From the NCBI GenBank assembly GCA_963792415.1, contig CAWBVY010000001.1:62025-126024 (forward strand): a stretch of DNA of 64,000 nt. The letters run 5' to 3'. Below, one piece after another: positions 1,426 to 44,135 of this stretch (position 1 is its first letter; every line of letters starts with the position of its first letter). This DNA is from Candidatus Deferrimicrobiaceae bacterium. Its GTDB lineage: Bacteria; Desulfobacterota; Deferrimicrobia; Deferrimicrobiales; Deferrimicrobiaceae. The position numbers were made by a program, and so were the translations under genes. The notes under the pieces were generated by a model. The model did not search any database. It was not told the origin of the DNA and was given only the letters and a program-made list of their open reading frames with translations.

Positions 1426-3516
1426 TCACCCTGGTTTCGATTGCCCGGGAGACGCCACCTTCGAAAAATCCGCCACCGACGCGAAAACCGCCGACAGCCC
1501 CTTCAGGAGGGCGAGCCGGTTGTTCCGGACCGATTCGTCCTTCGCCATCACGAGCACTTTTTCGAAGAAGGCGGCCACCAGCGGCTGGAGCCCCGCCATT
1601 TCGCGGAACGCCTCGCCGTACCGCCCGTCTCGGGCCGCCGCCACGACGCGGCCCGAGACATCGGCCGCTGCCGCGTGGAGTGCCCGCTCTTCGTCGTGTT
1701 CGAAGAACTTCTCCGAGACCGCGAGGGGACCGTCGTACGCCTTGGTGATGTTGATCGCGCGCTTGAAGACCTCCGCGAGGGGATCGAACGCCGCGTCCCC
1801 CCGGAAGGCGACCAGCGCATCGAGCTTCGCCCGAAGGTCCACCACGTCCGTGAGCCCCGGAGCCAGGACCGCCTCGACGAGGTCGGCCGGCGCCCCCTGG
1901 GAAACCAGGAGGTTCAGGTAGCGCGCGACGATGAATTCGAGGACCTTCTTCCGCACCTCGGCGGCCGGCAAGGTGAGCTTCGGCGCGAGGGTCGCGAGGG
2001 ACCGGTCCACCAGATCCGCGATCGGGATCCTGAGCCCCCGCGATTCGAGGATGGTGAGGATCCCCAGCGTGTGACGCCGGAGGCCGTAAGGGTCCGCGGT
2101 TCCGGTAGGGATGAGGCCCACTCCGAAGCAGCCGCACACCATGTCGATCTTGTCGGCGATCGCCGTCGCGGCCCCCACGTCCGTGGACGGAAGGTCGTCG
2201 GACTGTCCCTTCGGCAGATAGTGCTCGAACACGGACTGCGCGATCTCGGCCGACTCGCCGGTCTTCGAAGCGTAGTGCCGACCCATCACCCCCTGCAGCT
2301 CCGGAAACTCCTTGATGACGCCGGTCGTCAGGTCGGCCTTGCTGAGGAACGCCGCGCGGCGGCAATCCTCCGCCTTCTCGGGGAAACCGAAGGAGGCGAC
2401 GAACTCCCCGATATCGGCCATCCGCTCGACTTTTTCCCAGTACGTTCCCATGTCCGCCTGGAAAAGGACTTTCTTCAGCGCCTCGGAGCGGGCGAACAGG
2501 GGCTTCTTCAGGTCGTCCCCGTAGTAAAACTCGGCATCGGAGAGCCGGGCCCGGAGGACCCGCTCGTTCCCGGCGACGACCACCGACTCGTCGGGAACGA
2601 TCATGTTCGAAACGAAGGCGAACCCCGGGAACAGGTCTCCCTTCGCATCCTCGAAGACGAAATATTTCTGGTTGTTCCTCATCGAGGTGACGAGAACCTC
2701 CCTGGGAAGCGAGAGGTACTTCTCCTCGAACCGCCCCACCATGACGACGGGGTATTCCACGAGGTTCGCCACGGTCTCGACGAGCGGTTCGTCCTCCACC
2801 CACGTCATGCCGATTCGCTTTTCGGCCTCCCGGATCCCCTGGCGGATCCTCCCCTTCCGGTCTTCGAGGTCCACGAGCACCCGCGCCTTCGCAAGCATTC
2901 CGGGATACGCCTCGGTCGACGGGAGCTCGATGGCCGCGGGGGCGAGGAACCGGTGCCCGAAGGTCGTCCGCCCCGCGGCGACGTTGCCGAACGAAAACGG
3001 CAGGACCTCGTCCCCGTACAGCGAGACGATCCAATGGACCGGGCGGGCGAACCGCACGTCGAGGTCGGCCCACCGCATGGACTTCTTGAACGGAATCGCG
3101 GGGAGGAAGTCGGCGACGATCTTCGGAAGGATCTCCTGGACCGGGCGGGCCGCCTCCTCGCGAACGAAGCCGAGGTAGTCGCCGCGATCGGTCGGAAACA
3201 CGGTAAGTCCGGAGACGTCGATCCCCTGGGACTTCGCGAATCCAAGGGCCGCCTTCGTCGGCTTGCCGGCGGCATCGAGCCCCACGCTCTTCGGCGGGCC
3301 CATCACGGTCTCTTTCGACGCCGCCTGACGGTCCTCGAGGTCGCGGATAACGTACGTAAGCCGCCGCGGGGTGCCGTAGATGTCGACCTTCCGGAAGGAG
3401 AGGCGGGCCTTTTTCAGCGTCCCCTCGAACTGCTGGCTTCCGAACCAGAGCGCGGGGCCGACGAATCCCGCCGGGATTTCCTCGCAGCCGATCTCGAGCA
3501 GGTAGTCACGTTCCAT
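1426..3516 (-). CDS. glyS: Glycine--tRNA ligase beta subunit
   Basis: 696-aa ORF with full-length similarity to GlyS and the classic glyQ-glyS tandem. Confidence 0.95.
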   Translation of the reverse strand: MERDYLLEIGCEEIPAGFVGPALWFGSQQFEGTLKKARLSFRKVDIYGTPRRLTYVIRDLEDRQAASKETVMGPPKSVGLDAAGKPTKAALGFAKSQGIDVSGLTVFPTDRGDYLGFVREEAARPVQEILPKIVADFLPAIPFKKSMRWADLDVRFARPVHWIVSLYGDEVLPFSFGNVAAGRTTFGHRFLAPAAIELPSTEAYPGMLAKARVLVDLEDRKGRIRQGIREAEKRIGMTWVEDEPLVETVANLVEYPVVMVGRFEEKYLSLPREVLVTSMRNNQKYFVFEDAKGDLFPGFAFVSNMIVPDESVVVAGNERVLRARLSDAEFYYGDDLKKPLFARSEALKKVLFQADMGTYWEKVERMADIGEFVASFGFPEKAEDCRRAAFLSKADLTTGVIKEFPELQGVMGRHYASKTGESAEIAQSVFEHYLPKGQSDDLPSTDVGAATAIADKIDMVCGCFGVGLIPTGTADPYGLRRHTLGILTILESRGLRIPIADLVDRSLATLAPKLTLPAAEVRKKVLEFIVARYLNLLVSQGAPADLVEAVLAPGLTDVVDLRAKLDALVAFRGDAAFDPLAEVFKRAINITKAYDGPLAVSEKFFEHDEERALHAAAADVSGRVVAAARDGRYGEAFREMAGLQPLVAAFFEKVLVMAKDESVRNNRLALLKGLSAVFASVADFSKVASPGQSKPG

Positions 3517-3574
3517 CGGAATTCCTCTTCGCGGGTGGTTTCTTTGCGGGCCGTTTCATGAACAGGCCACCGAC

Positions 3575-4453
<879 letters not shown>

Positions 4454-4481: not shown

Positions 4482-4511
4482 TAGTTATCATCCGGCGGGA
4501 GGGGTTGTCAA
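4482..4511 (-). promoter_or_regulatory. Candidate sigma70 promoter for glyQS: perfect -35 TTGACA and a weak -10.
   Basis: On the minus strand, TTGACA (forward 4506-4511) is followed 17-18 nt later by ATAACT/TAACTA, about 25 nt upstream of the glyQ GTG. The -10 element is poor. Confidence 0.2.
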
Positions 4512-4552
4512 GCCAAATCATTGAAAAATTGAGGGGTTATAGCACTCGAAGG

Positions 4553-5287
4553 TCATTTCTTGCCCAGGCTCCGGAGACGCTTGCCCAAGCAATACTCGAC
4601 ATATCCTGGGATAACCGTCCGTAATTCCTCGGCAATCACAACAGGAATCCGGAGTCGACCCCGCCCCGTGGTCTTCCCCGCCTGCAGGGCGCGCCATGTC
4701 TTCACGGCGCCGAGGGAGAGGGGGACCCCCCCCAGGGGGTTGCAGGCTCCGCACAGGACCCCCCCCTCTGCATCGAGAAAGCGGTACGACCGACCCTCCT
4801 TCTCCCTGCATCTCCGGCACCCGGAGAGGTCGGGCCCCCACCCGGCGATGACGAGGAATTCGGCCTCGGCCCTTCGGGCGGCCTCCGGCGGCGACTCCCC
4901 GTCCGCGATCGAACGCAACCCCCGCAGAAGGACCTCGAACGCCCGCGGCTTCCCCCCCCCCTGTGGAAAAAGCTCCGACGCGATCTCGAGCAGGTGGTCC
5001 GCGTGTCGCACGCGTTCCCAATCCTCCACGATCCCCCAGAAACTCCGGTTCACGGAGGCGGAGGAAAGGACGGCCATCCGCCCCGTATGCTGCGTCCACG
5101 CAATGTCGAGGAGGACGTACCGCTGCAGGGCGCCGCCGAACCGTTTCCGGCTGCGCCACGCGGATTTTCCGACGGTCACGAGAACTCCGGCGTCCCGGGT
5201 GAAGAAGGTGAGGCGTCGGTCGGCCTCCCCGAGGTCGATGGCGCGGGCGAGGAATGCGGGAGAGGAGTGGAAGGAGGGCCGGATCAC
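4553..5287 (-). CDS. recO: DNA repair protein RecO
   Basis: OB-fold N-terminus (…AFLARAIDLGEADRRLTFFTRDAGVLVTVGKSAWRSRKRFGGALQ…) and a C-terminal zinc motif (CRRC…CGAC). The start is placed at a GTG that overlaps the rodZ-like stop (GTGA), by alignment to E. coli RecO. The longer ORF-table start is an R-rich extension. Confidence 0.8.
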   Translation of the reverse strand: MIRPSFHSSPAFLARAIDLGEADRRLTFFTRDAGVLVTVGKSAWRSRKRFGGALQRYVLLDIAWTQHTGRMAVLSSASVNRSFWGIVEDWERVRHADHLLEIASELFPQGGGKPRAFEVLLRGLRSIADGESPPEAARRAEAEFLVIAGWGPDLSGCRRCREKEGRSYRFLDAEGGVLCGACNPLGGVPLSLGAVKTWRALQAGKTTGRGRLRIPVVIAEELRTVIPGYVEYCLGKRLRSLGKK

Positions 5288-35094: not shown

Positions 35095-36162
35095 ATGCAA
35101 TCGACCGTCTGGTTCACCGATCTTTCCGCGCGCCCGGGGAACAGCCTGATCGACAAGACGGGGGCGCTCCTGCGGGCGGCCGGGATCCGGGAGCGGATCG
35201 GACGGGGCGCCCTGACCGCCGTCAAGCTCCACTTCGGGGAGAAGGGGAACACCGCCTTCCTCCGCCCGATCTTCGTCCGCAAGGTCGTCGAGGAGATCGC
35301 CGCCGCCGGGGGCAGGCCGTTCCTGACCGACACGAACACGCTGTATGTCGGCACCCGGAGCAACGCGGTCGATCACCTGAACACCGCGATTACAAACGGA
35401 TTTGCCTGGGCCGTGGCGGGGGCGCCCCTCGTCGTGGCGGACGGGCTCCGCGGGGAAAGCGCCGTCCGGGTGCCGATCGCGGGGAGGATCTTCCGCGAGG
35501 TTTCGATCGGGGCCGAAATCGTTCACGCGGACGCGCTGGTCGTGGTCACCCATTTCAAGGGGCACGAACTCTCCGGGTTCGGGGGTACGCTGAAAAACCT
35601 CGGGATGGGTTGCGCGGCGCGCTCCGGAAAGCTTTCCCAGCACTCCTCGGTGTCGCCCGCCGTCGATCCCTCGGGGTGCACGGGGTGCGGGACCTGCGTC
35701 GCCCACTGCCCGTCGGGAGCGATCGTCGTCATGGAAACGAAGGCGGCGATCTCGCAGGAATCGTGCATCGGGTGCGCGGACTGCATCGTCGTCTGCCCCG
35801 AGGGGACGGTGAACGTGGACTGGAACGAGGCGTCCTCGACGGTACAGGAAAAGATGGCCGAGCACGCGCTCGGGGCCGTCTCTGGGAAGCGGTCGTCTTC
35901 CCTGTTCCTCTCCTTCGTCACCCAGGTCTCCCCGTATTGCGACTGCTACGGCCACAACGACCGCCCGGTCGCGCCCGACGTCGGGATTCTCGCTTCCGAC
36001 GATCCCGTGGCGCTCGACCAGGCGTGCGTCGATCTCGTCATCAAGGCGTCGGGGATCGACCCGTTCCGGGCGACGCACCCCTCCGTGGACTGGTCCATCC
36101 AGCTTTCCCGCGCGGAGGAACTGGGCCTGGGAACCCGCGACTACCGGCTGGAGTCCCTGTGA
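35095..36162 (+). CDS. DUF362-domain protein with an inserted 2x[4Fe-4S] ferredoxin module
   Basis: 355 aa. A DUF362 fold with CTGCGTCVAHCP and CIGCADCIVVCP ferredoxin motifs plus extra Cys (CDCYGH). Confidence 0.75.
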   Translation: MQSTVWFTDLSARPGNSLIDKTGALLRAAGIRERIGRGALTAVKLHFGEKGNTAFLRPIFVRKVVEEIAAAGGRPFLTDTNTLYVGTRSNAVDHLNTAITNGFAWAVAGAPLVVADGLRGESAVRVPIAGRIFREVSIGAEIVHADALVVVTHFKGHELSGFGGTLKNLGMGCAARSGKLSQHSSVSPAVDPSGCTGCGTCVAHCPSGAIVVMETKAAISQESCIGCADCIVVCPEGTVNVDWNEASSTVQEKMAEHALGAVSGKRSSSLFLSFVTQVSPYCDCYGHNDRPVAPDVGILASDDPVALDQACVDLVIKASGIDPFRATHPSVDWSIQLSRAEELGLGTRDYRLESL

Positions 36163-36956
36163 CCCCGGAACGGAAGCTGTACGCCGGGATCGACATCGGT
36201 TCCCTCTCCACCGACGTGGTCCTGCTCGACGGGAACCTTGAAGTCGTCGGATCGGCCATCACCGCCACCGGCGCCTCCACGCGGAAAGCCGCCCGGGAGG
36301 CGCTCGACGCGGCCCTCCGGGCCGGAGGGGCGGCGGAGCGGGAGATCGCCTTCACCGTCGCGACGGGGTACGGAAGGGAATCGGTGGAGGGGGCCGACCT
36401 CCGCGTCACGGAGATCACGTGCCACGCCCGGGGGGCGCGGCGACTCTTCCCCGACGCGCGCACGGTCCTCGACATCGGCGGGCAGGACAGCAAGGTGATC
36501 CGGCTGGGTCCGGACGGAAAAGTCGCCGACTTCGCCATGAACGACAAGTGCGCCGCGGGGACCGGGAGGTTCCTCGAGGTGATGGCCAGGACGCTCGAGA
36601 TGGACCTGGAACGGATGGGAGAGCGCTCCCTCCTCGCCACCCGGTCGCTCACCGTGAGCTCCACCTGCACGGTCTTCGCCGAATCGGAGGTCGTTTCCCT
36701 CATCGCTTCGGGAGCCGCGCCGGAGGAGATCGCCTGGGGGGTGCACCTCGCGATCTCGGAGCGGATCGCCGCCCTCGCGGAGCGGCCCGGGATGGCTCCC
36801 CCCGCGGTCCTGACCGGCGGCGTTGCGAAGAACCCGGGGGCGCGCAAGGCGCTCGAGGACCGGTTCGGGATCCGCTTCCTCGTGCCGGACGAGCCGCAGC
36901 TCACCGGCGCGCTGGGCGCGGCGCTGATCGCCTTCGAGCGCGCCGCGGCCCTCTAG
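36159..36956 (+). CDS. BadF/BadG/BcrA/BcrD-type ATPase (HgdC-like CoA-substrate-specific enzyme activase)
   Basis: 265 aa from GTG 36159-36161, overlapping the DUF362 stop (GTGA). Acetate/sugar-kinase fold (LYAGIDIGSLSTD…) with the cluster-bridging Cys region (MNDKCAAGTGRFLE). Confidence 0.75.
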   Translation: MTPERKLYAGIDIGSLSTDVVLLDGNLEVVGSAITATGASTRKAAREALDAALRAGGAAEREIAFTVATGYGRESVEGADLRVTEITCHARGARRLFPDARTVLDIGGQDSKVIRLGPDGKVADFAMNDKCAAGTGRFLEVMARTLEMDLERMGERSLLATRSLTVSSTCTVFAESEVVSLIASGAAPEEIAWGVHLAISERIAALAERPGMAPPAVLTGGVAKNPGARKALEDRFGIRFLVPDEPQLTGALGAALIAFERAAAL

Positions 36957-38128
36957 GCCCGGGAGCGTTCCTCGCGCAGGATCGCGAAGAATCGGTCGAT
37001 CTCCTCGGGGGTGTTGTAGAAGTGCGGGGAGACGCGGATCCCCTTGGCCCGGTGGGAGCAGACCGCCTTCCGGTTCAGGAGGGCCCTCCAGAGGGCGGCG
37101 TTGTCCGCCTCCGGAACGCGGAACGTGACGATCCCCGACCGCTCCTCGGGGTGGTCGGGGGAAACCAGCAGGCACCCCTCCTCCCCCACCCGTTCGCGGA
37201 TCCGCTCCGTGAGGCGGCGCACCCGCTCCCAGATCCGGTCCACCCCGAGCGACAGCAGCAGCTCGAGCGAGGCGTTGAACGCCGACAGGCCGACCGTGTT
37301 CATGCTTCCCGGCTCGTACCGCCGGGCGTCGGGGGAAAGGCGGAAGTCGTAATTCTCGAAGTCGAACCGGTTCTTCACGGAGTGCCACCCGAGGATCACC
37401 GGCTCGACCATCTCCATGACGTCCCGGGAGATGTAGAAGCCGCCGATCCCCTCCGGCGACAGAAGCCATTTGTGGCCGTCCGCGGAGAGGGCGTCGATGC
37501 CGAAGGACTTCACGTCCATCGGGAGGACACCCAGGGACTGGATCGCATCCACACAGAAGAAGATGCCGTGCCTCTGGCAATACTCCCCGATACCCGCCAG
37601 GTCGTTCCGGTATCCGTTCGAAAATTCCACGGACGAGAGGGTGATCAGGCGGGTCTTCCCGTCGCACGCGTCGAACAGGTCCTCCTTGCGCACCCTCCCC
37701 TCGCGCGCGGGGACCATCCGGACCTCCACGTTGCGCGTCCGGAGCCGGAGCCAGGGATACACGTTGGAGGGGTACTCGACGTTCGACGTGACCAGGTTGT
37801 CCCCTTCCTTCCAGGGGAAACCGGCGGCGATGAAGGAAAGCCCCTCGGAGGTGTTCTTCACGAAGGCGATCTCGTCCGGTGAGGCGCCGACGATCCGCGC
37901 GAACCGGCCCCGCGTCTCGTTCGCCAGCTCCTCCCATTTCCGGAGGCGGAAGGCGCCCTCGTCCCGGGCGAGCTGCAGCATGTGGATCCCCGCCTCGGCG
38001 GAGCTCGCCGGGATGGGCGATACGCCCGCGTGGTTGAAGTACAGGAAATCTCCGGTGACCGGAAACTCCGCGGCCCGGATCGGCTCGACATCGATCGGCA
38101 AAGTGTCCCCCCAGGCCGGCCTTTTCAA
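36953..38128 (-). CDS. Class-V aminotransferase / cysteine desulfurase-like PLP enzyme; start uncertain.
   Basis: PLP fold with SADGHKWLLSPEGIGGFY (Lys-PLP region). The N-terminus …LPIDVEPIRAAEFP… is typical of SufS/IscS-like enzymes. Candidate TTG starts at 38128 or 38101. Confidence 0.7.
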   Translation of the reverse strand: MKRPAWGDTLPIDVEPIRAAEFPVTGDFLYFNHAGVSPIPASSAEAGIHMLQLARDEGAFRLRKWEELANETRGRFARIVGASPDEIAFVKNTSEGLSFIAAGFPWKEGDNLVTSNVEYPSNVYPWLRLRTRNVEVRMVPAREGRVRKEDLFDACDGKTRLITLSSVEFSNGYRNDLAGIGEYCQRHGIFFCVDAIQSLGVLPMDVKSFGIDALSADGHKWLLSPEGIGGFYISRDVMEMVEPVILGWHSVKNRFDFENYDFRLSPDARRYEPGSMNTVGLSAFNASLELLLSLGVDRIWERVRRLTERIRERVGEEGCLLVSPDHPEERSGIVTFRVPEADNAALWRALLNRKAVCSHRAKGIRVSPHFYNTPEEIDRFFAILREERSRA

Positions 38129-38159
38129 GGCCGGTCCGGTTATACGGTATAATATTTCG

Positions 38160-38972
38160 ATGGTTTGGTCAGGCGAAAACACATTGCGGTACAGCCGGAA
38201 CATCCTCGTCGAGGAACTGGGAGAGGCCGGACAGGAGCGGCTCTTCGCGTCGTCCGTGCTCGTCGTGGGCGCCGGGGGGCTGGGGTCCCCCGCCCTTCTC
38301 TACCTCGCCGCCGCGGGGATCGGACGGATCGGGGTGATCGACGACGACCGGGTGGACATCTCCAACTTCAACCGCCAGGTGATCCACCGGTCCGACGCCG
38401 TGGGCCAGTGGAAGACCGCCTCGGCGGCCGCGGCGCTGCGGACGTTCCGGACGGACCTGACGGTCGACGCCTACCCGGAGGCGCTCACCGCGGCGAACGC
38501 CGCCGCGCTGTTCCGGAAATACGACGCCGTCGTGGACGGCAGCGACAACTTCCCGACGAAGTACCTGTGCAACGACGCGGCGGTGGTGACCGGCCGACCG
38601 CTCGTGCACGCCGGGGTCCTGCGGTTCGGCGGCCAGATGCTCACGGTCGTCCCCGGCGCGGGACCTTGCCTGCGGTGCGTGATCCCACGGATCCCGTCGC
38701 GGAAGGACTCCCCCGGGTGCGCCGAGGCCGGCATCGTCGGCGCGGCCGCGGGCGTCGTCGGCGCGTGGCAGGCGATGGAGGCGATCAAGCTGCTCTCGTT
38801 CGCCGCACCGTCGCCGGCGGGGAAATTGCTGACCATCGACACGCTTTCGAACGAGGTGTCGTGCCTCACGGTCGTCCGCGACCGGTCGTGCCCCGCGTGC
38901 GGGGAAGATCCCCGGATCACGGAGCCGCTGTCCGACGCCGAATACGATCCCGAACGGAGTTGCGCCGTATGA
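38160..38972 (+). CDS. ThiF/MoeB-family E1-like adenylyltransferase; probably MoeB, given the adjacent mogA.
   Basis: 270 aa with the GAGGLGS nucleotide loop and a C-terminal CxxC…CxxC zinc motif. ATG at 38160, with TATAAT immediately upstream (38148-38153). Confidence 0.8.
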   Translation: MVWSGENTLRYSRNILVEELGEAGQERLFASSVLVVGAGGLGSPALLYLAAAGIGRIGVIDDDRVDISNFNRQVIHRSDAVGQWKTASAAAALRTFRTDLTVDAYPEALTAANAAALFRKYDAVVDGSDNFPTKYLCNDAAVVTGRPLVHAGVLRFGGQMLTVVPGAGPCLRCVIPRIPSRKDSPGCAEAGIVGAAAGVVGAWQAMEAIKLLSFAAPSPAGKLLTIDTLSNEVSCLTVVRDRSCPACGEDPRITEPLSDAEYDPERSCAV

Positions 38973-40009
38973 GCCTCCCCGCGACCCTCTCTCCTCCACG
39001 GAAGGCGGTCATTCTCCTCTCGGGGGGGCTCGACAGCACCCTGGCGGCCCGCATCGTCCGGGACCAGGGGATCGAGCTTCACGCGATCCATTTCACCTCG
39101 CCGTTCTGCACCTGCTCCCACAAGGGCCCGGGGAACGGGAACGGGTGCCGCTCGGCGGCGCAGGAGGTCGCGGTGGGGATGGGGATCCCGATCCGGACCG
39201 TTTCGAAGGGCGAGGAGTACCTCGAGATCGTCAAGCGCCCCCGGCACGGCCGGGGGTCGGCGATGAACCCGTGCATCGACTGCCGGATCTTCACCCTGCG
39301 GAAGGCGAAGGCGTTCATGGAGGAGATCGGCGCCTCCTTCCTGGTCACCGGGGAGGTCGTCGGGCAGCGGCCGATGTCCCAGCGGGACGACGCGCTGCGC
39401 GGCATCGAGAAGCACAGCGGATGCGCGGGGATCATCCTGCGCCCGCTTTCCGCCCACCACCTCCCCCCCTCGCTGCCGGAGCGGGAAGGCTGGGTGGACC
39501 GGGAGAAACTGCTCGCGATCACGGGGCGCTCCCGCAAGGAGCAGATCCGGCTCGCGGAGGAGTTCGGAATCGGCGACTACCCGTGCCCCGCGGGGGGATG
39601 CATGTTGACCGACCGGACCTTCTCCCTCAAGGTGCGGGATCTCCTCGACCACCACCCTTCCTTCGGGATGCACGAAGTCCTCCTCCTGAAGGCGGGCCGC
39701 CATTTCCGCGTTCGGGGGATCCGGGCGATCGTGGCGAAAAGCGAGGGGGAGAACCGCCGGCTCGAGGCCCTCTGCCGGGGGAGGGACACCGTCTACGTGG
39801 CGCACAGCCACCCGGGCCCGTCCGTGACGCTCCTGGGCGGAAGCGAGGAGGAACGCCTCGATCTGCTCTCCCGGATCTTCACCCGGTACGGCAAGGCTGG
39901 GTCGGTCGGTTCCTACGAAATCCGGGAGATCGCGCCCGGCGGGGAGCGACTCGTGACCGTGCCCGAAAACCCGGACTTCGAGGAGGTCGGGCGTGGACTC
40001 CTCTGCTGA
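38969..40009 (+). CDS. PP-loop ATP pyrophosphatase, ThiI-like adenylation domain, without THUMP or rhodanese domains; it has CxxC and CPxxxC motifs plus an uncharacterized C-terminal domain of about 120 aa.
   Basis: SGGLDS PP-loop. …NPCIDCRIFTLRKAKAFMEEIGASFLVTGEVVGQRPMSQ…ILRPL…DYPC… is colinear with the ThiI PP-loop domain. ATGA overlap with the E1 gene stop. Confidence 0.65.
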   Translation: MSLPATLSPPRKAVILLSGGLDSTLAARIVRDQGIELHAIHFTSPFCTCSHKGPGNGNGCRSAAQEVAVGMGIPIRTVSKGEEYLEIVKRPRHGRGSAMNPCIDCRIFTLRKAKAFMEEIGASFLVTGEVVGQRPMSQRDDALRGIEKHSGCAGIILRPLSAHHLPPSLPEREGWVDREKLLAITGRSRKEQIRLAEEFGIGDYPCPAGGCMLTDRTFSLKVRDLLDHHPSFGMHEVLLLKAGRHFRVRGIRAIVAKSEGENRRLEALCRGRDTVYVAHSHPGPSVTLLGGSEEERLDLLSRIFTRYGKAGSVGSYEIREIAPGGERLVTVPENPDFEEVGRGLLC

Positions 40010-40880
40010 CAAACGGAACGGCGCCCCGACGCCGGACGACCTTCGCCGCTACGAGGCGTTGCTCGAGGAGCTCCGCCGGATGGGGTCGGCCGTCGTCGCC
40101 TTCAGCGGCGGGGTGGACAGTTCGTTCCTGCTGCACGCAGCGAAGGCGGCGATGGGAGACCGGGTCCTGGCCGTCACCGCGACGTCGCCGACGTACCCCC
40201 GCTCCGAGCGGGAGGAGGCTTCGCGGCTCGCCCGCTCGTGGGGCGTGGCGCACCGTCTCGTCGAGTCGAACGAGCTGGAGATCCCCGGCTTCTCCGCGAA
40301 CCCTCCGGACCGGTGCTACCACTGCAAAAAGGAGCTGTTCGGGATCCTCGCCGGGATCGCCCGCGAAGAGGGGTACGCGGCCGTGTGCGACGGATCGAAC
40401 GCCGACGACCGGCACGACTTCCGGCCGGGGCGCCGCGCCGCGAAGGAGCTCGCCGTCCGCAGCCCGCTGCTCGAGAACGGACTGGGCAAGCCGGCGATCC
40501 GCCGCCTGAGCCGGAGCTTCGGTCTCCCCACGGCGGACCGCGGTTCGTTCGCGTGCCTCTCCTCGCGCTTCCCGTACGGAACGACGATCGACGAGGAGTC
40601 GCTGCGACGCGTGGAGGCGTGCGAGGAGGTGCTGCGGGGGTTCGGATTCCGGCAGTTCCGGGTGCGCGTCCACGGCGCGGTGGCGCGCATCGAAGTGGGG
40701 ACGGACGAGATCCCGCGCCTCTTCGAGCCGGAGATCTCCGGGGCGATCCACGATCGGTTCCGGGAGAACGGCTTTCTCTACGTCTCCGTGGACATCCGGG
40801 GGTACCGCACGGGTTCGATGAACGAGGGGCTGCCGGCATCGACCCTGGGACTCGTCGCAGGACCGCCCGAAGATCTGTAG
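39993..40880 (+). CDS. LarE-family PP-loop ATPase (TIGR00268 sulfur insertase), three-Cys [4Fe-4S]-type
   Basis: FSGGVDSS PP-loop. …ACLSSRFPYGTT…FRVRVHGAVARIEVG… matches LarE. The Cys in CYHCK plus ACLSSR indicate the Fe-S-dependent, non-sacrificial class. GTG start with a GAGGAGG RBS. Confidence 0.8.
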   Translation: MDSSADKRNGAPTPDDLRRYEALLEELRRMGSAVVAFSGGVDSSFLLHAAKAAMGDRVLAVTATSPTYPRSEREEASRLARSWGVAHRLVESNELEIPGFSANPPDRCYHCKKELFGILAGIAREEGYAAVCDGSNADDRHDFRPGRRAAKELAVRSPLLENGLGKPAIRRLSRSFGLPTADRGSFACLSSRFPYGTTIDEESLRRVEACEEVLRGFGFRQFRVRVHGAVARIEVGTDEIPRLFEPEISGAIHDRFRENGFLYVSVDIRGYRTGSMNEGLPASTLGLVAGPPEDL

Positions 40881-41020: not shown

Positions 41021-41090
41021 GCGGCGCACCCCACTCACCTACGAAATGCGCTCCCTGGGGTACCCCCGCCGTAGGAAGAACGGGGGGTAC
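41021..41090. repeat. Repeat module 2, copy B, in inverted orientation relative to copy A; overlaps the last about 18 codons of mogA.
   Basis: Reverse complement matches 9067-9138. It contributes the aberrant MogA tail …GGDCTPRSSYGGGTPGSAFRR. Confidence 0.75.
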
Positions 41091-41568
41091 AGTCGCCGCC
41101 TTCGCCGCGGATCTTTTCGATCGCGTGGGGGAGGGCGGGAAGAAGAACCGCCAGGTTCTCCGTGGCGCCGCCGGGGCTCCCCGGCAGGTTGACGATCAGC
41201 GTCTTCCCGCGGATGCCGACCACGGCGCGGGACAGCATCGCCGCGGGTACCCGCTTGAGGCTTTCCGCCCGCATCGCCTCCGCCATCCCGGGTACTTCCC
41301 GGTCCAGGATCTCCCGGGTGGCGTCCGGCGTGACGTCGCGCGGGTCGACCCCCGTTCCCCCGGTAGTCACGACCAGGTCGAGCTCGAGCGCGTCGCAGAA
41401 GTGGAGAAGGGCGCGGCGGATGAAGGAAACCTCGTCGGGGATCACCACCTGCTGCGCGATCTCCGCGGGAAGCGACCGGAGCATCTCCGCCACGGCGGGA
41501 CCGGAAGCGTCGGGACGCTCCTTCCGGAACGACCGGTCGGACATGGTGATCACGGCGGCGCGGAACAC
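41035..41568 (-). CDS. mogA: Molybdopterin adenylyltransferase MogA/MoaB family
   Basis: 177 aa with …AAVITMSDRS… and the TTGGTG motif. GTG start with a GAGGGG RBS. The C-terminal about 18 aa are encoded by the repeat element. Confidence 0.85.
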   Translation of the reverse strand: MFRAAVITMSDRSFRKERPDASGPAVAEMLRSLPAEIAQQVVIPDEVSFIRRALLHFCDALELDLVVTTGGTGVDPRDVTPDATREILDREVPGMAEAMRAESLKRVPAAMLSRAVVGIRGKTLIVNLPGSPGGATENLAVLLPALPHAIEKIRGEGGDCTPRSSYGGGTPGSAFRR

Positions 41569-41578
41569 GCGGCGCCCC

Positions 41579-43018
41579 TCAGTTCTTCAGGATGTTCGAC
41601 TTGAAGATCAGCTTCTCGTGGTCGTCGCCGTCTTCCGGGAACGAGGCGTGGCCGAACCGCACCTCGACGCGCGCGTCCCTGGCGCGGCGGCGGATCTCCT
41701 CGGCCTCGGCGGCGATCGCCTTCTTGATGCGCGGGATCGCGCTGATCTTGCCGTCCTCCGCCTCGGGAAGGATCATCCCGAACTTCGCCTCGCTGATCCG
41801 GGCCACGATGTCGTACTCGCGAAGGGTGGCGCGGATCGCCTTCGCCACCTGCTTCATCACCCAGTCCGCGCGACCGGCGCGGGAACGCGATCCCGCAGGC
41901 ACGTGCGCCTGGATCTCGCAGATCATCAGGACGAGTCGCCGCTGGAACCGCTTCGCCCGGCTGATCTCGTGCAGCAGGCGCTCCTGGAAATACTTGAGGG
42001 TGGGCAGCGAGGTCGTCTCGTCGAGGTTCCTCAGCCGGTCGTTCCGCTCGTAGGCGATCGCGTTCGCGACCGCCTTCTCGACGTACTTCAGGAATTTTCC
42101 GAACGTCGCGAGGTCCTCGGGGGTGAACGAGGAGGGGAAGAACGTCTTGTGGGGAAACTTGTCGAAGATCGTGGCGGTCCCGAGAATCTCCCCGTCACCC
42201 TGGAGCGGAATGCACGCGAGCGTCCGGGCGACCCCGGAGAATTCCTGCCAGCCGGGCTCCTGCGAGGCGTCGCGCACGAGCACGGACGGCTCCCCCTTGA
42301 GGACGGCGGTAACCGCCTTCTTGTCCATGAGGAAGAGGTCCTTCTGCTCCCCTTCCGTCTTCATCCCGTAGTACTCGCGAATCCCGTACTTCCCGGTTTC
42401 CGGGTCGAGCAGGCGGATGACGCACGTCTCGGCCTCGAGGATGAGGCAGGCGGAGGTGGCCACCAGCTTGAGAAGCCTGGTCAGGTCGAGCGTCGAGATG
42501 ATGTTGATCCCCGCCTCGTTGATCGCGGCGATCTTCGTCATCCGGAGGGCGGCGGACTCCTCCCGCAGGGACACCCCCACCGCGTCCGAGAGGAGGACGG
42601 CGGCGTCGGTGACCACCGACAGTTTCTCCTCGGGGAACTCCCCCTCGGAGACCGTCTGCACGACGAGCACCCCGTTGGGCTCCCCGGAGGAGAGGAGCGG
42701 GAACATCAGGACCGTCCCCCGCTTGCGGCTGTTCTCCGGCCTTTTCCCTTCGGAGAGGATGATGGGACGGTGCTCGGCGAGGCTGAGTTCCTCGAGCGTG
42801 CCTTCCGCCGGGAAGTGGAATTCCGGGGCGCCCGGCGTCGCGCGGCGGGTGCTGGTGCGAACGTAGAAGTCCTCGCTGTCGCGATCGAACAGGAGGACGG
42901 AGACGGTGCCCCCGCCGAGCCAGGCGGACAGCTCTCCGGAAAATTCCCGCAGACGTTCCTCGATCGGCTTCGCCGAGCGGAGGATCTCCCCGGCCTTTCT
43001 CGTGAAATCGTCGGGCAC
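41579..43018 (-). CDS. GAF-domain protein with a C-terminal degenerate GGDEF domain (no GGDEF motif; probable c-di-GMP-related regulator rather than a cyclase)
   Basis: 479 aa. Tandem GAF-like regions, then a GGDEF-fold with RISEAKFGMIL in place of RxGGDEF. Confidence 0.7.
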   Translation of the reverse strand: MPDDFTRKAGEILRSAKPIEERLREFSGELSAWLGGGTVSVLLFDRDSEDFYVRTSTRRATPGAPEFHFPAEGTLEELSLAEHRPIILSEGKRPENSRKRGTVLMFPLLSSGEPNGVLVVQTVSEGEFPEEKLSVVTDAAVLLSDAVGVSLREESAALRMTKIAAINEAGINIISTLDLTRLLKLVATSACLILEAETCVIRLLDPETGKYGIREYYGMKTEGEQKDLFLMDKKAVTAVLKGEPSVLVRDASQEPGWQEFSGVARTLACIPLQGDGEILGTATIFDKFPHKTFFPSSFTPEDLATFGKFLKYVEKAVANAIAYERNDRLRNLDETTSLPTLKYFQERLLHEISRAKRFQRRLVLMICEIQAHVPAGSRSRAGRADWVMKQVAKAIRATLREYDIVARISEAKFGMILPEAEDGKISAIPRIKKAIAAEAEEIRRRARDARVEVRFGHASFPEDGDDHEKLIFKSNILKN

Positions 43019-43019
43019 G

Positions 43020-44135
43020 CTATTCCCCGTCCATCGTTACCCGGATCCGCAGCCGGACCGGGTTTCCCGCCGAGTCGAGGAACAGCGCCGGCAAAACGGC
43101 CTGCCCGCCGGGAGCGACGAAGGGCGTCTCGAACTTGAGAAAGGTGAGTCCCGATCCCTCGTCGTCGGCGGACACCGTGAAGGACGGCGGCGGGACAGGC
43201 TCGGCAACGGATGGCGGTGGAATTGGCGGTGGTGCAGGAGCTGCCGGCGGCGGTGGTGGCGGCGGTTCGGGCCCCTTTTCCGGGATCTCGACGTCGATCA
43301 CCGAAAGTTCCTCGAACTCCACGGCCGGTTTCGGCGCTTCCGAAGACCGGAGCGTGGTCGGCTGCAGGTCGACCTCGGCAACAACGGGGTCGGGCGACGC
43401 CGCGGGGGCGACCTCGCCGCCTTCCCGGATCTCCTCGACGTCGGAAATTTCCTCGAGGGGCTCGGCCTCCTGCGGGCCGAAGGTCTTCCCGATCCGCGCG
43501 TCGGCGAGTTCCCCCAAATCGTCGTGCGCCGCCATCTCCCCCGGCATCAAAAGGGTTTTCCTGAGGTGGGAGAAGACCATCCTGGAGATCCCCACCAGCG
43601 TCTCGGTCACCCCCTTGCCGGTGGGCGCGACCGCCTCGAATGTGGGAACGTGGAGGAAATTCAGCGCGGTGTCCAGTTCCGCAACGGGGGCGGCGTTCCG
43701 GAGGTCCCGCTTGTTGTACTGGAGGACGAACGGGAGTTCCTCGAGCTTCTTCCCGTAGGACGAGAGGTTGTCCATCAGGTTCTTCAGGCTCTCCATGTTG
43801 CTGTTGACCATCTCCCGCTGGGAGTCCGCGACGAACACGACCCCATCCACGCCCTGGAGCACCAGCCTCCGGGTGGCGTTGTAGAACACCTGCCCGGGCA
43901 CCGTGTAGAGATGGAAGCGGACCTTGAACCCCTTGATCTGCCCCAGCTCGATCGGGAGGAAGTCGAAAAAGAGGGTCCGGTCGGTCTCGGTGGGAAGGGA
44001 GATCAGGCGCCCCTTCTGCTCCGGGCGCAACATCTTGTGGACGATCTCGATATTGGTGGTCTTGCCGGAGAGGCCCGGGCCGTAATAGACGATCTTCGCG
44101 CTGAGCTCGCGGGTCGCGTAGTTGAAGAGGGCCAT
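43020..44135 (-). CDS. mglA: MglA-like Ras-family small GTPase with a 170-aa C-terminal extension (acidic linker, poly-Pro tract, small C-terminal domain)
   Basis: The N-terminal about 195 aa are nearly identical in pattern to MglA (KIVYYGPGLSGKTTN…LISLPTETDRTLFFDFLP…TVPGQVFY…QYNKRDL). It then continues in frame with …PEPPPPPPPAAPAPPPIPPP… and about 55 more residues. Confidence 0.85.
   Translation of the reverse strand: MALFNYATRELSAKIVYYGPGLSGKTTNIEIVHKMLRPEQKGRLISLPTETDRTLFFDFLPIELGQIKGFKVRFHLYTVPGQVFYNATRRLVLQGVDGVVFVADSQREMVNSNMESLKNLMDNLSSYGKKLEELPFVLQYNKRDLRNAAPVAELDTALNFLHVPTFEAVAPTGKGVTETLVGISRMVFSHLRKTLLMPGEMAAHDDLGELADARIGKTFGPQEAEPLEEISDVEEIREGGEVAPAASPDPVVAEVDLQPTTLRSSEAPKPAVEFEELSVIDVEIPEKGPEPPPPPPPAAPAPPPIPPPSVAEPVPPPSFTVSADDEGSGLTFLKFETPFVAPGGQAVLPALFLDSAGNPVRLRIRVTMDGE

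Follow-up and report, generated by a model that had tools for sequence, protein, structure and literature searches.

In the 64-kb window analyzed here, a stretch of 64,000 nucleotides from a Candidatus Deferrimicrobiaceae bacterium (contig CAWBVY010000001.1), a forward-strand gene encodes a 346-amino-acid (aa) protein in which a ThiI-like PP-loop domain is joined to a C-terminal tail that belongs, on sequence evidence, to the NFACT-R_2 domain family (formerly DUF814). We refer to this protein by its predicted activity as the thiolase. Its gene lies between genes for a ThiF-type E1-like adenylyltransferase and a LarE-like PP-loop protein, with a cysteine-desulfurase-like aminotransferase gene running divergently beyond the former (Table 1). 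The protein begins MSLPATLSPP and ends GRGLLC. Its reading frame is open over 38165..40009 (+), within which the real gene starts at 38969, with its ATG overlapping the TGA of the ThiF-like gene; this start is supported because homologues of 340-352 aa align over 97-100% of the protein length. Full-length homologues share 63-93% identity. Open reading frames (ORFs) on the opposite strand at this gene are the usual shadow ORFs of DNA with 69% GC.

An earlier note on this DNA, made from the sequence alone, had described a ThiI-like PP-loop protein without THUMP or rhodanese, carrying an additional C-terminal region that it could not place in any known family. The architecture was confirmed by Pfam, which matched ThiI/tRNA_Me_trans at aa 12-160 and NFACT-R_2 at aa 243-325, with no further match at E ≤1. 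Neither THUMP nor rhodanese gave a Pfam match in the protein even at E up to 1 and the PP-loop starts at aa 12; therefore, both usual accessory domains of ThiI are absent. All of the strings quoted in support of that description can also be located in the protein: DYPCPAGGC spans aa 203-211, EALCRG spans aa 266-271, and GLLC forms the C terminus. The extra region had been given a start at 39630 and a length of about 120 aa; the region is correct, but the start is off the reading frame by 2 nt (a codon begins at 39632, approximately aa 222) and the length falls slightly short, as 135 aa (nt 39602-40006) follow C211.

The tail can, however, be placed. PF18297 (NFACT-R_2, "NFACT protein RNA binding domain") matched the protein at E 6.6e-12, scoring 45.9 bits (gathering cutoff, 26.9) and spanning model positions 1-84 of 104, and the tail alone as query returned the same model at E 1.6e-12. 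Among the top 120 homologues, all but one carry NFACT-R_2 as a precomputed domain. In the PDB, a profile made only of the tails of 27 diverse homologues (the tail alignment) matched residues 457-531 of Bacillus subtilis RqcH, its NFACT-R region, at E 1.5e-8. The fibronectin-binding protein/RqcH homologue of Streptococcus pneumoniae (5h3w) followed at E 1e-7, and human NEMF gave a weak match at E 0.24. Structural matches of the tail were likewise NFACT-R proteins, with the NFACT-R alpha/beta fold of RqcH, NEMF, and CCDC25. The tail is thus a known and annotated fold, and not the degenerate rhodanese that had been named as one such outcome. In an AlphaFold model built from the alignment (predicted TM-score, pTM, 0.89), the PP-loop and NFACT-R_2 domains are linked by a two-helix connector, whose conserved residues are L213, T214, K221, and K241.

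The tail is a real conserved protein domain carried by thousands of homologues, and conservation within it was examined both in the tail alignment and in an alignment of 39 full-length diverse homologues with 36-78% identity (the full-length alignment). H245, R257, N262, G283, P284, and Y307 are near-invariant in the latter, and GRHFR and RYS stand out as family-specific motifs. At position 257, the tail alignment shows K or R in every sequence (100%), and ≥90% of the full-length alignment has R; the window protein and its closest relatives have Lys there. Eight tail positions are consistently basic (221, 223, 241, 244, 247, 252, 257, and 306), while the overall pI of the domain varies from 5.0 to 9.7 among homologues; conserved basic positions despite varying pI fit a local nucleic-acid-binding surface. 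In the register of the RqcH DIWLH sequence, the tail has no DxxxH.

Table 1. Position of the thiolase gene, its domains and motifs, and adjacent genes in the window. Conservation is given for the full-length alignment.
Feature	Position	Strand	Details
Class-V aminotransferase, cysteine-desulfurase-like	36953..38203	-	Divergent; PF00266 E 1e-54
ThiF/MoeB/UbaA-type E1-like adenylyltransferase	38160..38972	+	270 aa; PF00899 E 3.3e-74; ATGA overlap with thiolase gene
PP-loop/NFACT-R fusion gene (thiolase)	38969..40009	+	346 aa, stop codon included; ThiI-like PP-loop plus NFACT-R_2
Catalytic PP-loop ATP-pyrophosphatase domain	38969..39601	+	aa 1-211; Pfam ThiI match aa 12-160
PP-loop ATP-binding motif SGGLDS	39020..39037	+	aa 18-23; S18 invariant, G19/G20/L21/D22/S23 ≥90%
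CxxC (C102-I-D-C105)	39272..39283	+	39/39; two predicted Fe-S cluster ligands
GRSRKEQ, family-specific GRxRxxQ loop motif	39524..39544	+	aa 186-192
C211 of GGC motif	39599..39601	+	39/39; predicted third cluster ligand or catalytic Cys
Two-helix connector	39602..39694	+	aa 212-242; AlphaFold helices 216-228 and 234-239, pLDDT >90
NFACT-R_2 domain	39695..39943	+	Pfam match aa 243-325; folded domain reaches ~aa 342
GRHFR	39695..39709	+	aa 243-247; G243/R244 invariant, H245/R247 near-invariant; R244 is the first conserved Arg of the family
KSEGEN	39737..39754	+	aa 257-262; second conserved-Arg position, Lys here; N262 conserved
C269 (EALCRG)	39773..39775	+	Not conserved, 4/39
C346 (terminal Cys)	40004..40006	+	Not conserved, 4/39
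LarE-like PP-loop sulfurtransferase	39993..40880	+	295 aa; TIGR00268 311.8 bits vs cutoff 150; 17-nt overlap with end of thiolase gene

In the catalytic domain, C102, C105, and C211 are the invariant cysteines of the full-length alignment, whereas C206, close to C211, is present in 10/39 sequences. The CxxC pair aligns with NPCVMC of MnmA (9hln), and the three cysteines together make up the CXXC + C pattern that characterizes [4Fe-4S]-dependent tRNA sulfurases. Within the GRxRxxQ motif, R189 is invariant and G186, R187, and Q192 are conserved in at least 90% of sequences; the accompanying (T/S)xxE motif reads SLPE (aa 168-171), with Ser replacing Thr and with E171 conserved in at least 90%. 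The ThiI-type GExxGQxxSQ and RPL motifs are common to this domain and to the ThiI structures 2c5s and 4kr6. An additional CxC motif followed after 9-10 residues by a further Cys (C47/C49/C60; aa 47-60, 39107-39148, +) occurs in the window protein and in about one third of the diverse homologues (10 to 12 of 39), in a loop modeled with low confidence (pLDDT <50 at aa 54-59); it may bind metal as a lineage-specific site.

The family to which the window protein belongs, as a typical member, is already known; it has been described computationally and has a Pfam model. The fusion of a ThiI-like PP-loop to DUF814, renamed NFACT-R, was described by Burroughs and Aravind (RNA Biol 2014, PMC4075521), and that paper reports a family lacking THUMP and rhodanese that retains the PP-loop residues, the CxxC, and the internal Cys, has an elaborated active-site loop with GRxRxxQ and TxxE motifs, and carries an NFACT-R with two nearly absolute arginines and no RqcH-type DxxxH motif. 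The fusion and canonical ThiI were reported there to be nearly mutually exclusive, and the authors predicted a tRNA-binding role for NFACT-R, substituting for THUMP, in an alternative pathway of 4-thiouridylation using TusA, the sole conserved neighbor named in that description. The window protein agrees with the description in domain order, SGGxDS, CxxC plus internal Cys, GRxRxxQ, (T/S)xxE, the first Arg, the missing DxxxH, and the host group (delta-proteobacteria/Desulfobacterota are among the listed hosts). It differs in having Lys257 as the second Arg, no TusA in the 64-kb window, and flanking genes for ThiF, a LarE-like PP-loop protein, and a divergent cysteine-desulfurase-like enzyme.

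The finding is therefore real but ordinary, being one copy among many thousands of a protein whose function was predicted in 2014. The family comprises 8000 or more protein clusters (90% identity) and occurs in at least 598 species of the genome collection, including Geobacter, Geomonas, Syntrophus, Smithella, anammox bacteria (Planctomycetes), Omnitrophota, Nitrospirae, Spirochaetota, and several archaeal phyla. The tail alone detects 543 clusters at 50% identity, nearly all of which are proteins of ~325-375 aa with the match at ~200-330, or fragments; a 1058-aa protein with six apparent tail matches proved to be an EF-hand protein, its matches being spurious. Members are routinely misnamed in databases as MnmA, ThiI, or QueC.

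Canonical bacterial ThiI/TtuI (Thermotoga maritima 4kr6, Bacillus anthracis 2c5s) is built as a ferredoxin-like domain at the N terminus (NFLD), THUMP, and PP-loop, with or without rhodanese. The window protein lacks the ferredoxin-like, THUMP, and rhodanese domains, has CxxC where bacterial ThiI has a gap, and would presumably owe its RNA recognition to the C-terminal NFACT-R; the NCBIfam ThiI equivalog (TIGR00342) gave 38.1 bits against a cutoff of 264.5 and was matched at model positions 174-312 only. Archaeal TtuI (Methanococcus maripaludis and Pyrococcus furiosus; PMC9825150) likewise has no rhodanese and has the CXXC + C triad in its catalytic domain, but it keeps THUMP, and its third-Cys spacing (C268 to C348) differs from the longer C105 to C211 spacing here. 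The NFACT-R_1 domains of RqcH/NEMF/Rqc2 and CCDC25 occur in ribosome quality control or as a eukaryotic solo domain, whereas the window tail lacks DWH/DxxxH and has the GRHFR and RYS motifs. MnmA shares the PP-loop core and has CxxC/DxxC and a later Cys at aligned positions; however, the MnmA middle and C-terminal domains are missing from the window protein, which scored 32 bits against the equivalog cutoff of 284.

The ThiF-like protein matched the NCBIfam MoeB, UbaA, and ThiF models below their respective cutoffs, and a search of the 64-kb window for a ThiS/MoaD-like carrier, among ORFs that end in GG and reach 55 aa or more, gave only implausible high-GC shadow ORFs. The LarE-like protein scored 149 bits to Lactobacillus plantarum LarE and has CYHC where that enzyme has WYYA, as well as a Cys at the position of the sacrificial C176; these residues mark it as the CxxC+C (Fe-S type) variant of LarE. 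For the aminotransferase, the best NCBIfam matches were cysteine desulfurase families, all below cutoff. This block of four genes (aminotransferase, ThiF, thiolase, and LarE-like) is kept in relatives down to 64% identity (loci L001, L003, L009, and L010).

Neighbor counts were made over 80 related genome loci. In 17 loci the direct neighbor is a LarE-like gene, in either gene order, and in 4 more such a gene lies within ~4 kb (21/80); ThiF lies within 400 nt in 10 loci and within ~2.3 kb in 3 more (13/80), and a cysteine-desulfurase-like gene is a neighbor in 8/80. TusA, for which a search with an Escherichia coli sequence (E 1e-5) had found 2 loci only, was a neighbor in 6/80 when an HMM built from TusA matches was used. 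One such case is locus L038 (1139-5977, +) from a Candidatus Abyssobacteria metagenome-assembled genome, where genes for ThiF-PALP-JAB-DsrE-DsrE-DsrH-TusA-ThiF stand directly upstream of the thiolase, with TusA confirmed by Pfam; this locus joins a CysO/CysM-type thiocarboxylate cassette to a TusBCD/TusA-like relay. An 84-aa ORF in the same locus (4488-4742) looked non-coding, had no Pfam match, and was set aside. A Poribacteria locus (L060) has two ThiF genes and TusA spaced as in L038. The thiolase family thus occurs repeatedly in sulfur-relay contexts, with varying partners, while more distant homologues (L006, L007, and L008) have unrelated housekeeping neighborhoods that are uninformative. 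The linkage with LarE-like and ThiF genes in this subclade is a minor new detail that the consulted passages of the 2014 paper (PMC4075521) do not mention, and these recurrent neighbors are concrete candidate partners.

Taken together, we consider it probable that the protein is an NFACT-R-bearing thiolase, in which NFACT-R holds the RNA, the PP-loop adenylates it, and the sulfur derives from an Fe-S cluster. The basic residues K221, R244, R247, R252, K257, and R306 would hold an RNA, most likely tRNA, so that NFACT-R would take on the task performed in canonical ThiI by THUMP; the substrate-recognition role suggested for the tail in the earlier note agrees with this explanation and with the published tRNA-binding prediction. 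The PP-loop (SGGLDS) would then spend ATP to adenylate the carbonyl of the target uridine, and sulfide bound to a [4Fe-4S] cluster at C102/C105/C211, rather than a rhodanese persulfide, would replace the oxygen to give thiouridine. The three cysteines are predicted to hold the cluster by analogy with archaeal TtuI, whose CXXC+C motif binds an essential [4Fe-4S] cluster (PMC9825150). The product, following the published prediction, would be 4-thiouridine at position 8 (s4U8), which is consistent with ThiI as the top structural match and with the complete canonical three-domain MnmA gene (2894-3979, +) located two genes upstream of the LarE-like/thiolase pair in locus L005. In this lineage, products of the neighboring genes would probably provide the sulfur, namely the ThiF-type E1 encoded next to the thiolase, the enzyme resembling cysteine desulfurases, and the LarE-like sulfurtransferase. 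If the mechanism is right, the family would represent a third architectural solution for s4U synthesis, with NFACT-R standing in for THUMP and a [4Fe-4S] cluster for rhodanese.

Several observations weigh against this explanation. The DxxxH/DWH motif that mediates the rRNA contact of RqcH is absent from the subfamily, the second "conserved arginine" is Lys257 in the window protein, and with a pI of 7.9 the tail domain as a whole lacks a strongly basic character. HMM scores for ThiI and MnmA lie too close for a clear separation, both in Pfam (37.4 vs 34.5 bits) and in a profile search (48.5 vs 41.4 bits), and the NCBIfam equivalog cutoffs of both are missed widely. The published partner, TusA, is also missing, as the HMM search found no TusA ORF in the 64-kb window, although a link to TusA describes the gene's context and does not define the family by sequence. 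Finally, literature searches found no experimental study of any member of this very widespread family of predicted tRNA-thiolation enzymes, so the binding of RNA, the nucleotide targeted, and the Fe-S cluster are all predicted features.

Other roles for the tail were weighed against the same evidence. That it passes sulfur to the active site via C269/C346, as a persulfide carrier (a role the earlier note had raised, with conservation of these cysteines as the check) or as a degenerate rhodanese, would provide the delivery route that the missing rhodanese domain leaves vacant, and two cysteines are indeed present in the window tail; however, neither is conserved in homologues and cysteine is missing altogether from 7 of 27 tails, so a carrier role is not supported, and with conservation and fold both ruling it out, we regard this idea as barely credible. 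It is unlikely, in our view, that NFACT-R_2 is mainly a protein-protein docking or oligomerization module for the ThiF-activated carrier, the LarE-like protein, and TusA, leaving RNA recognition to the PP-loop domain itself. The recurrent adjacency of these genes, often with overlapping reading frames, the near-neutral overall charge of the domain in many members, and its tight packing onto the catalytic domain (in the model with pTM 0.89) would suit such docking, but partners change between loci while the domain stays constant, and its invariant residues are of basic or polar surface types (GRHFR, R/K257, and N262). Moreover, all characterized relatives of the fold contact nucleic acid (rRNA for RqcH and DNA for CCDC25, 7eof), and an enzyme whose NFACT-R had no RNA role would have no RNA-binding module replacing THUMP. 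A nucleic acid other than tRNA, such as the ribosome or rRNA (as for RqcH) or DNA (as for CCDC25), with a novel thiolated site, appears improbable. The experimentally defined contacts of NFACT-R are indeed with helix 38 (H38) of 23S rRNA and with DNA, not with tRNA: in RqcH-50S complexes, the domain sits on the A-site finger (H38) (bioRxiv 10.1101/2020.09.03.281279), and CCDC25 has been crystallized with DNA. Nevertheless, mutation of the DWH motif abolishes 50S association of RqcH (bioRxiv 10.1101/2020.09.03.281279), and that motif is not conserved in this family. The characterized enzymes with such a catalytic domain (ThiI/TtuI, MnmA, TtuA, and NcsA) all act on tRNA. Bacteria are not known to have a thiolated rRNA nucleotide.

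The nature of the thiolated nucleotide can be questioned in a similar way. A tRNA thiolase producing 2-thiouridine (s2U) or another thionucleoside, in the manner of MnmA, TtuA, or TtcA, seems quite unlikely to us, although the Pfam tRNA_Me_trans (MnmA) score nearly equals the ThiI score, a sequence search of the PDB with the single protein gave MnmA (2der) as its best match, the cysteines of CxxC and GGC stand at aligned positions with those of MnmA, and many database names say MnmA (the automatic JGI name is "tRNA U34 2-thiouridine synthase MnmA/TrmU"). The complete MnmA encoded near the family member in L005 argues against this label and indicates that the family is not simply a replacement for MnmA. 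It is conceivable, as an outside chance, that the ThiF-type E1, the PP-loop/NFACT-R thiolase, and the Fe-S-type LarE-like protein form an undescribed dedicated sulfur-relay module with translationally coupled genes and including the divergent cysteine-desulfurase-like gene, in which case the thiolated nucleotide may not be s4U8. The two PP-loop enzymes might cooperate, for example as a Ctu1/Ctu2-like heteromer or through a thiocarboxylate donor made by the LarE-like protein.

Further genes flank the cluster in the window. Just downstream of the LarE-like gene lies a gene for a MogA-like molybdopterin-binding protein (41035-41568, -; PF00994), which is missing at the matching position of the 78%-identical locus L001; because of this nearby gene, the adjacent ThiF could instead serve as MoeB in molybdenum cofactor synthesis. 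On the other side (35095-36956, +) come genes for a DUF362 protein, which has two 4Fe-4S ferredoxin motifs, and then, with stop/start overlap, for a BcrAD/BadFG-type acyl-CoA dehydratase activase, and this pair is kept beside the sulfur-gene cluster in L001, L003, L009, and L010 (64-78% identity). BcrAD-type genes also occur near the homologue in L005, where HcyBio and NIL-ferredoxin (homocysteine biosynthesis) genes come just before MnmA. Beyond the MogA-like gene, a GAF-GAF-GGDEF diguanylate-cyclase-like protein and then a small Ras/Arf-like GTPase extended at its C terminus by a proline-rich stretch are encoded (41579-44135, -), both of which are conserved in L001.

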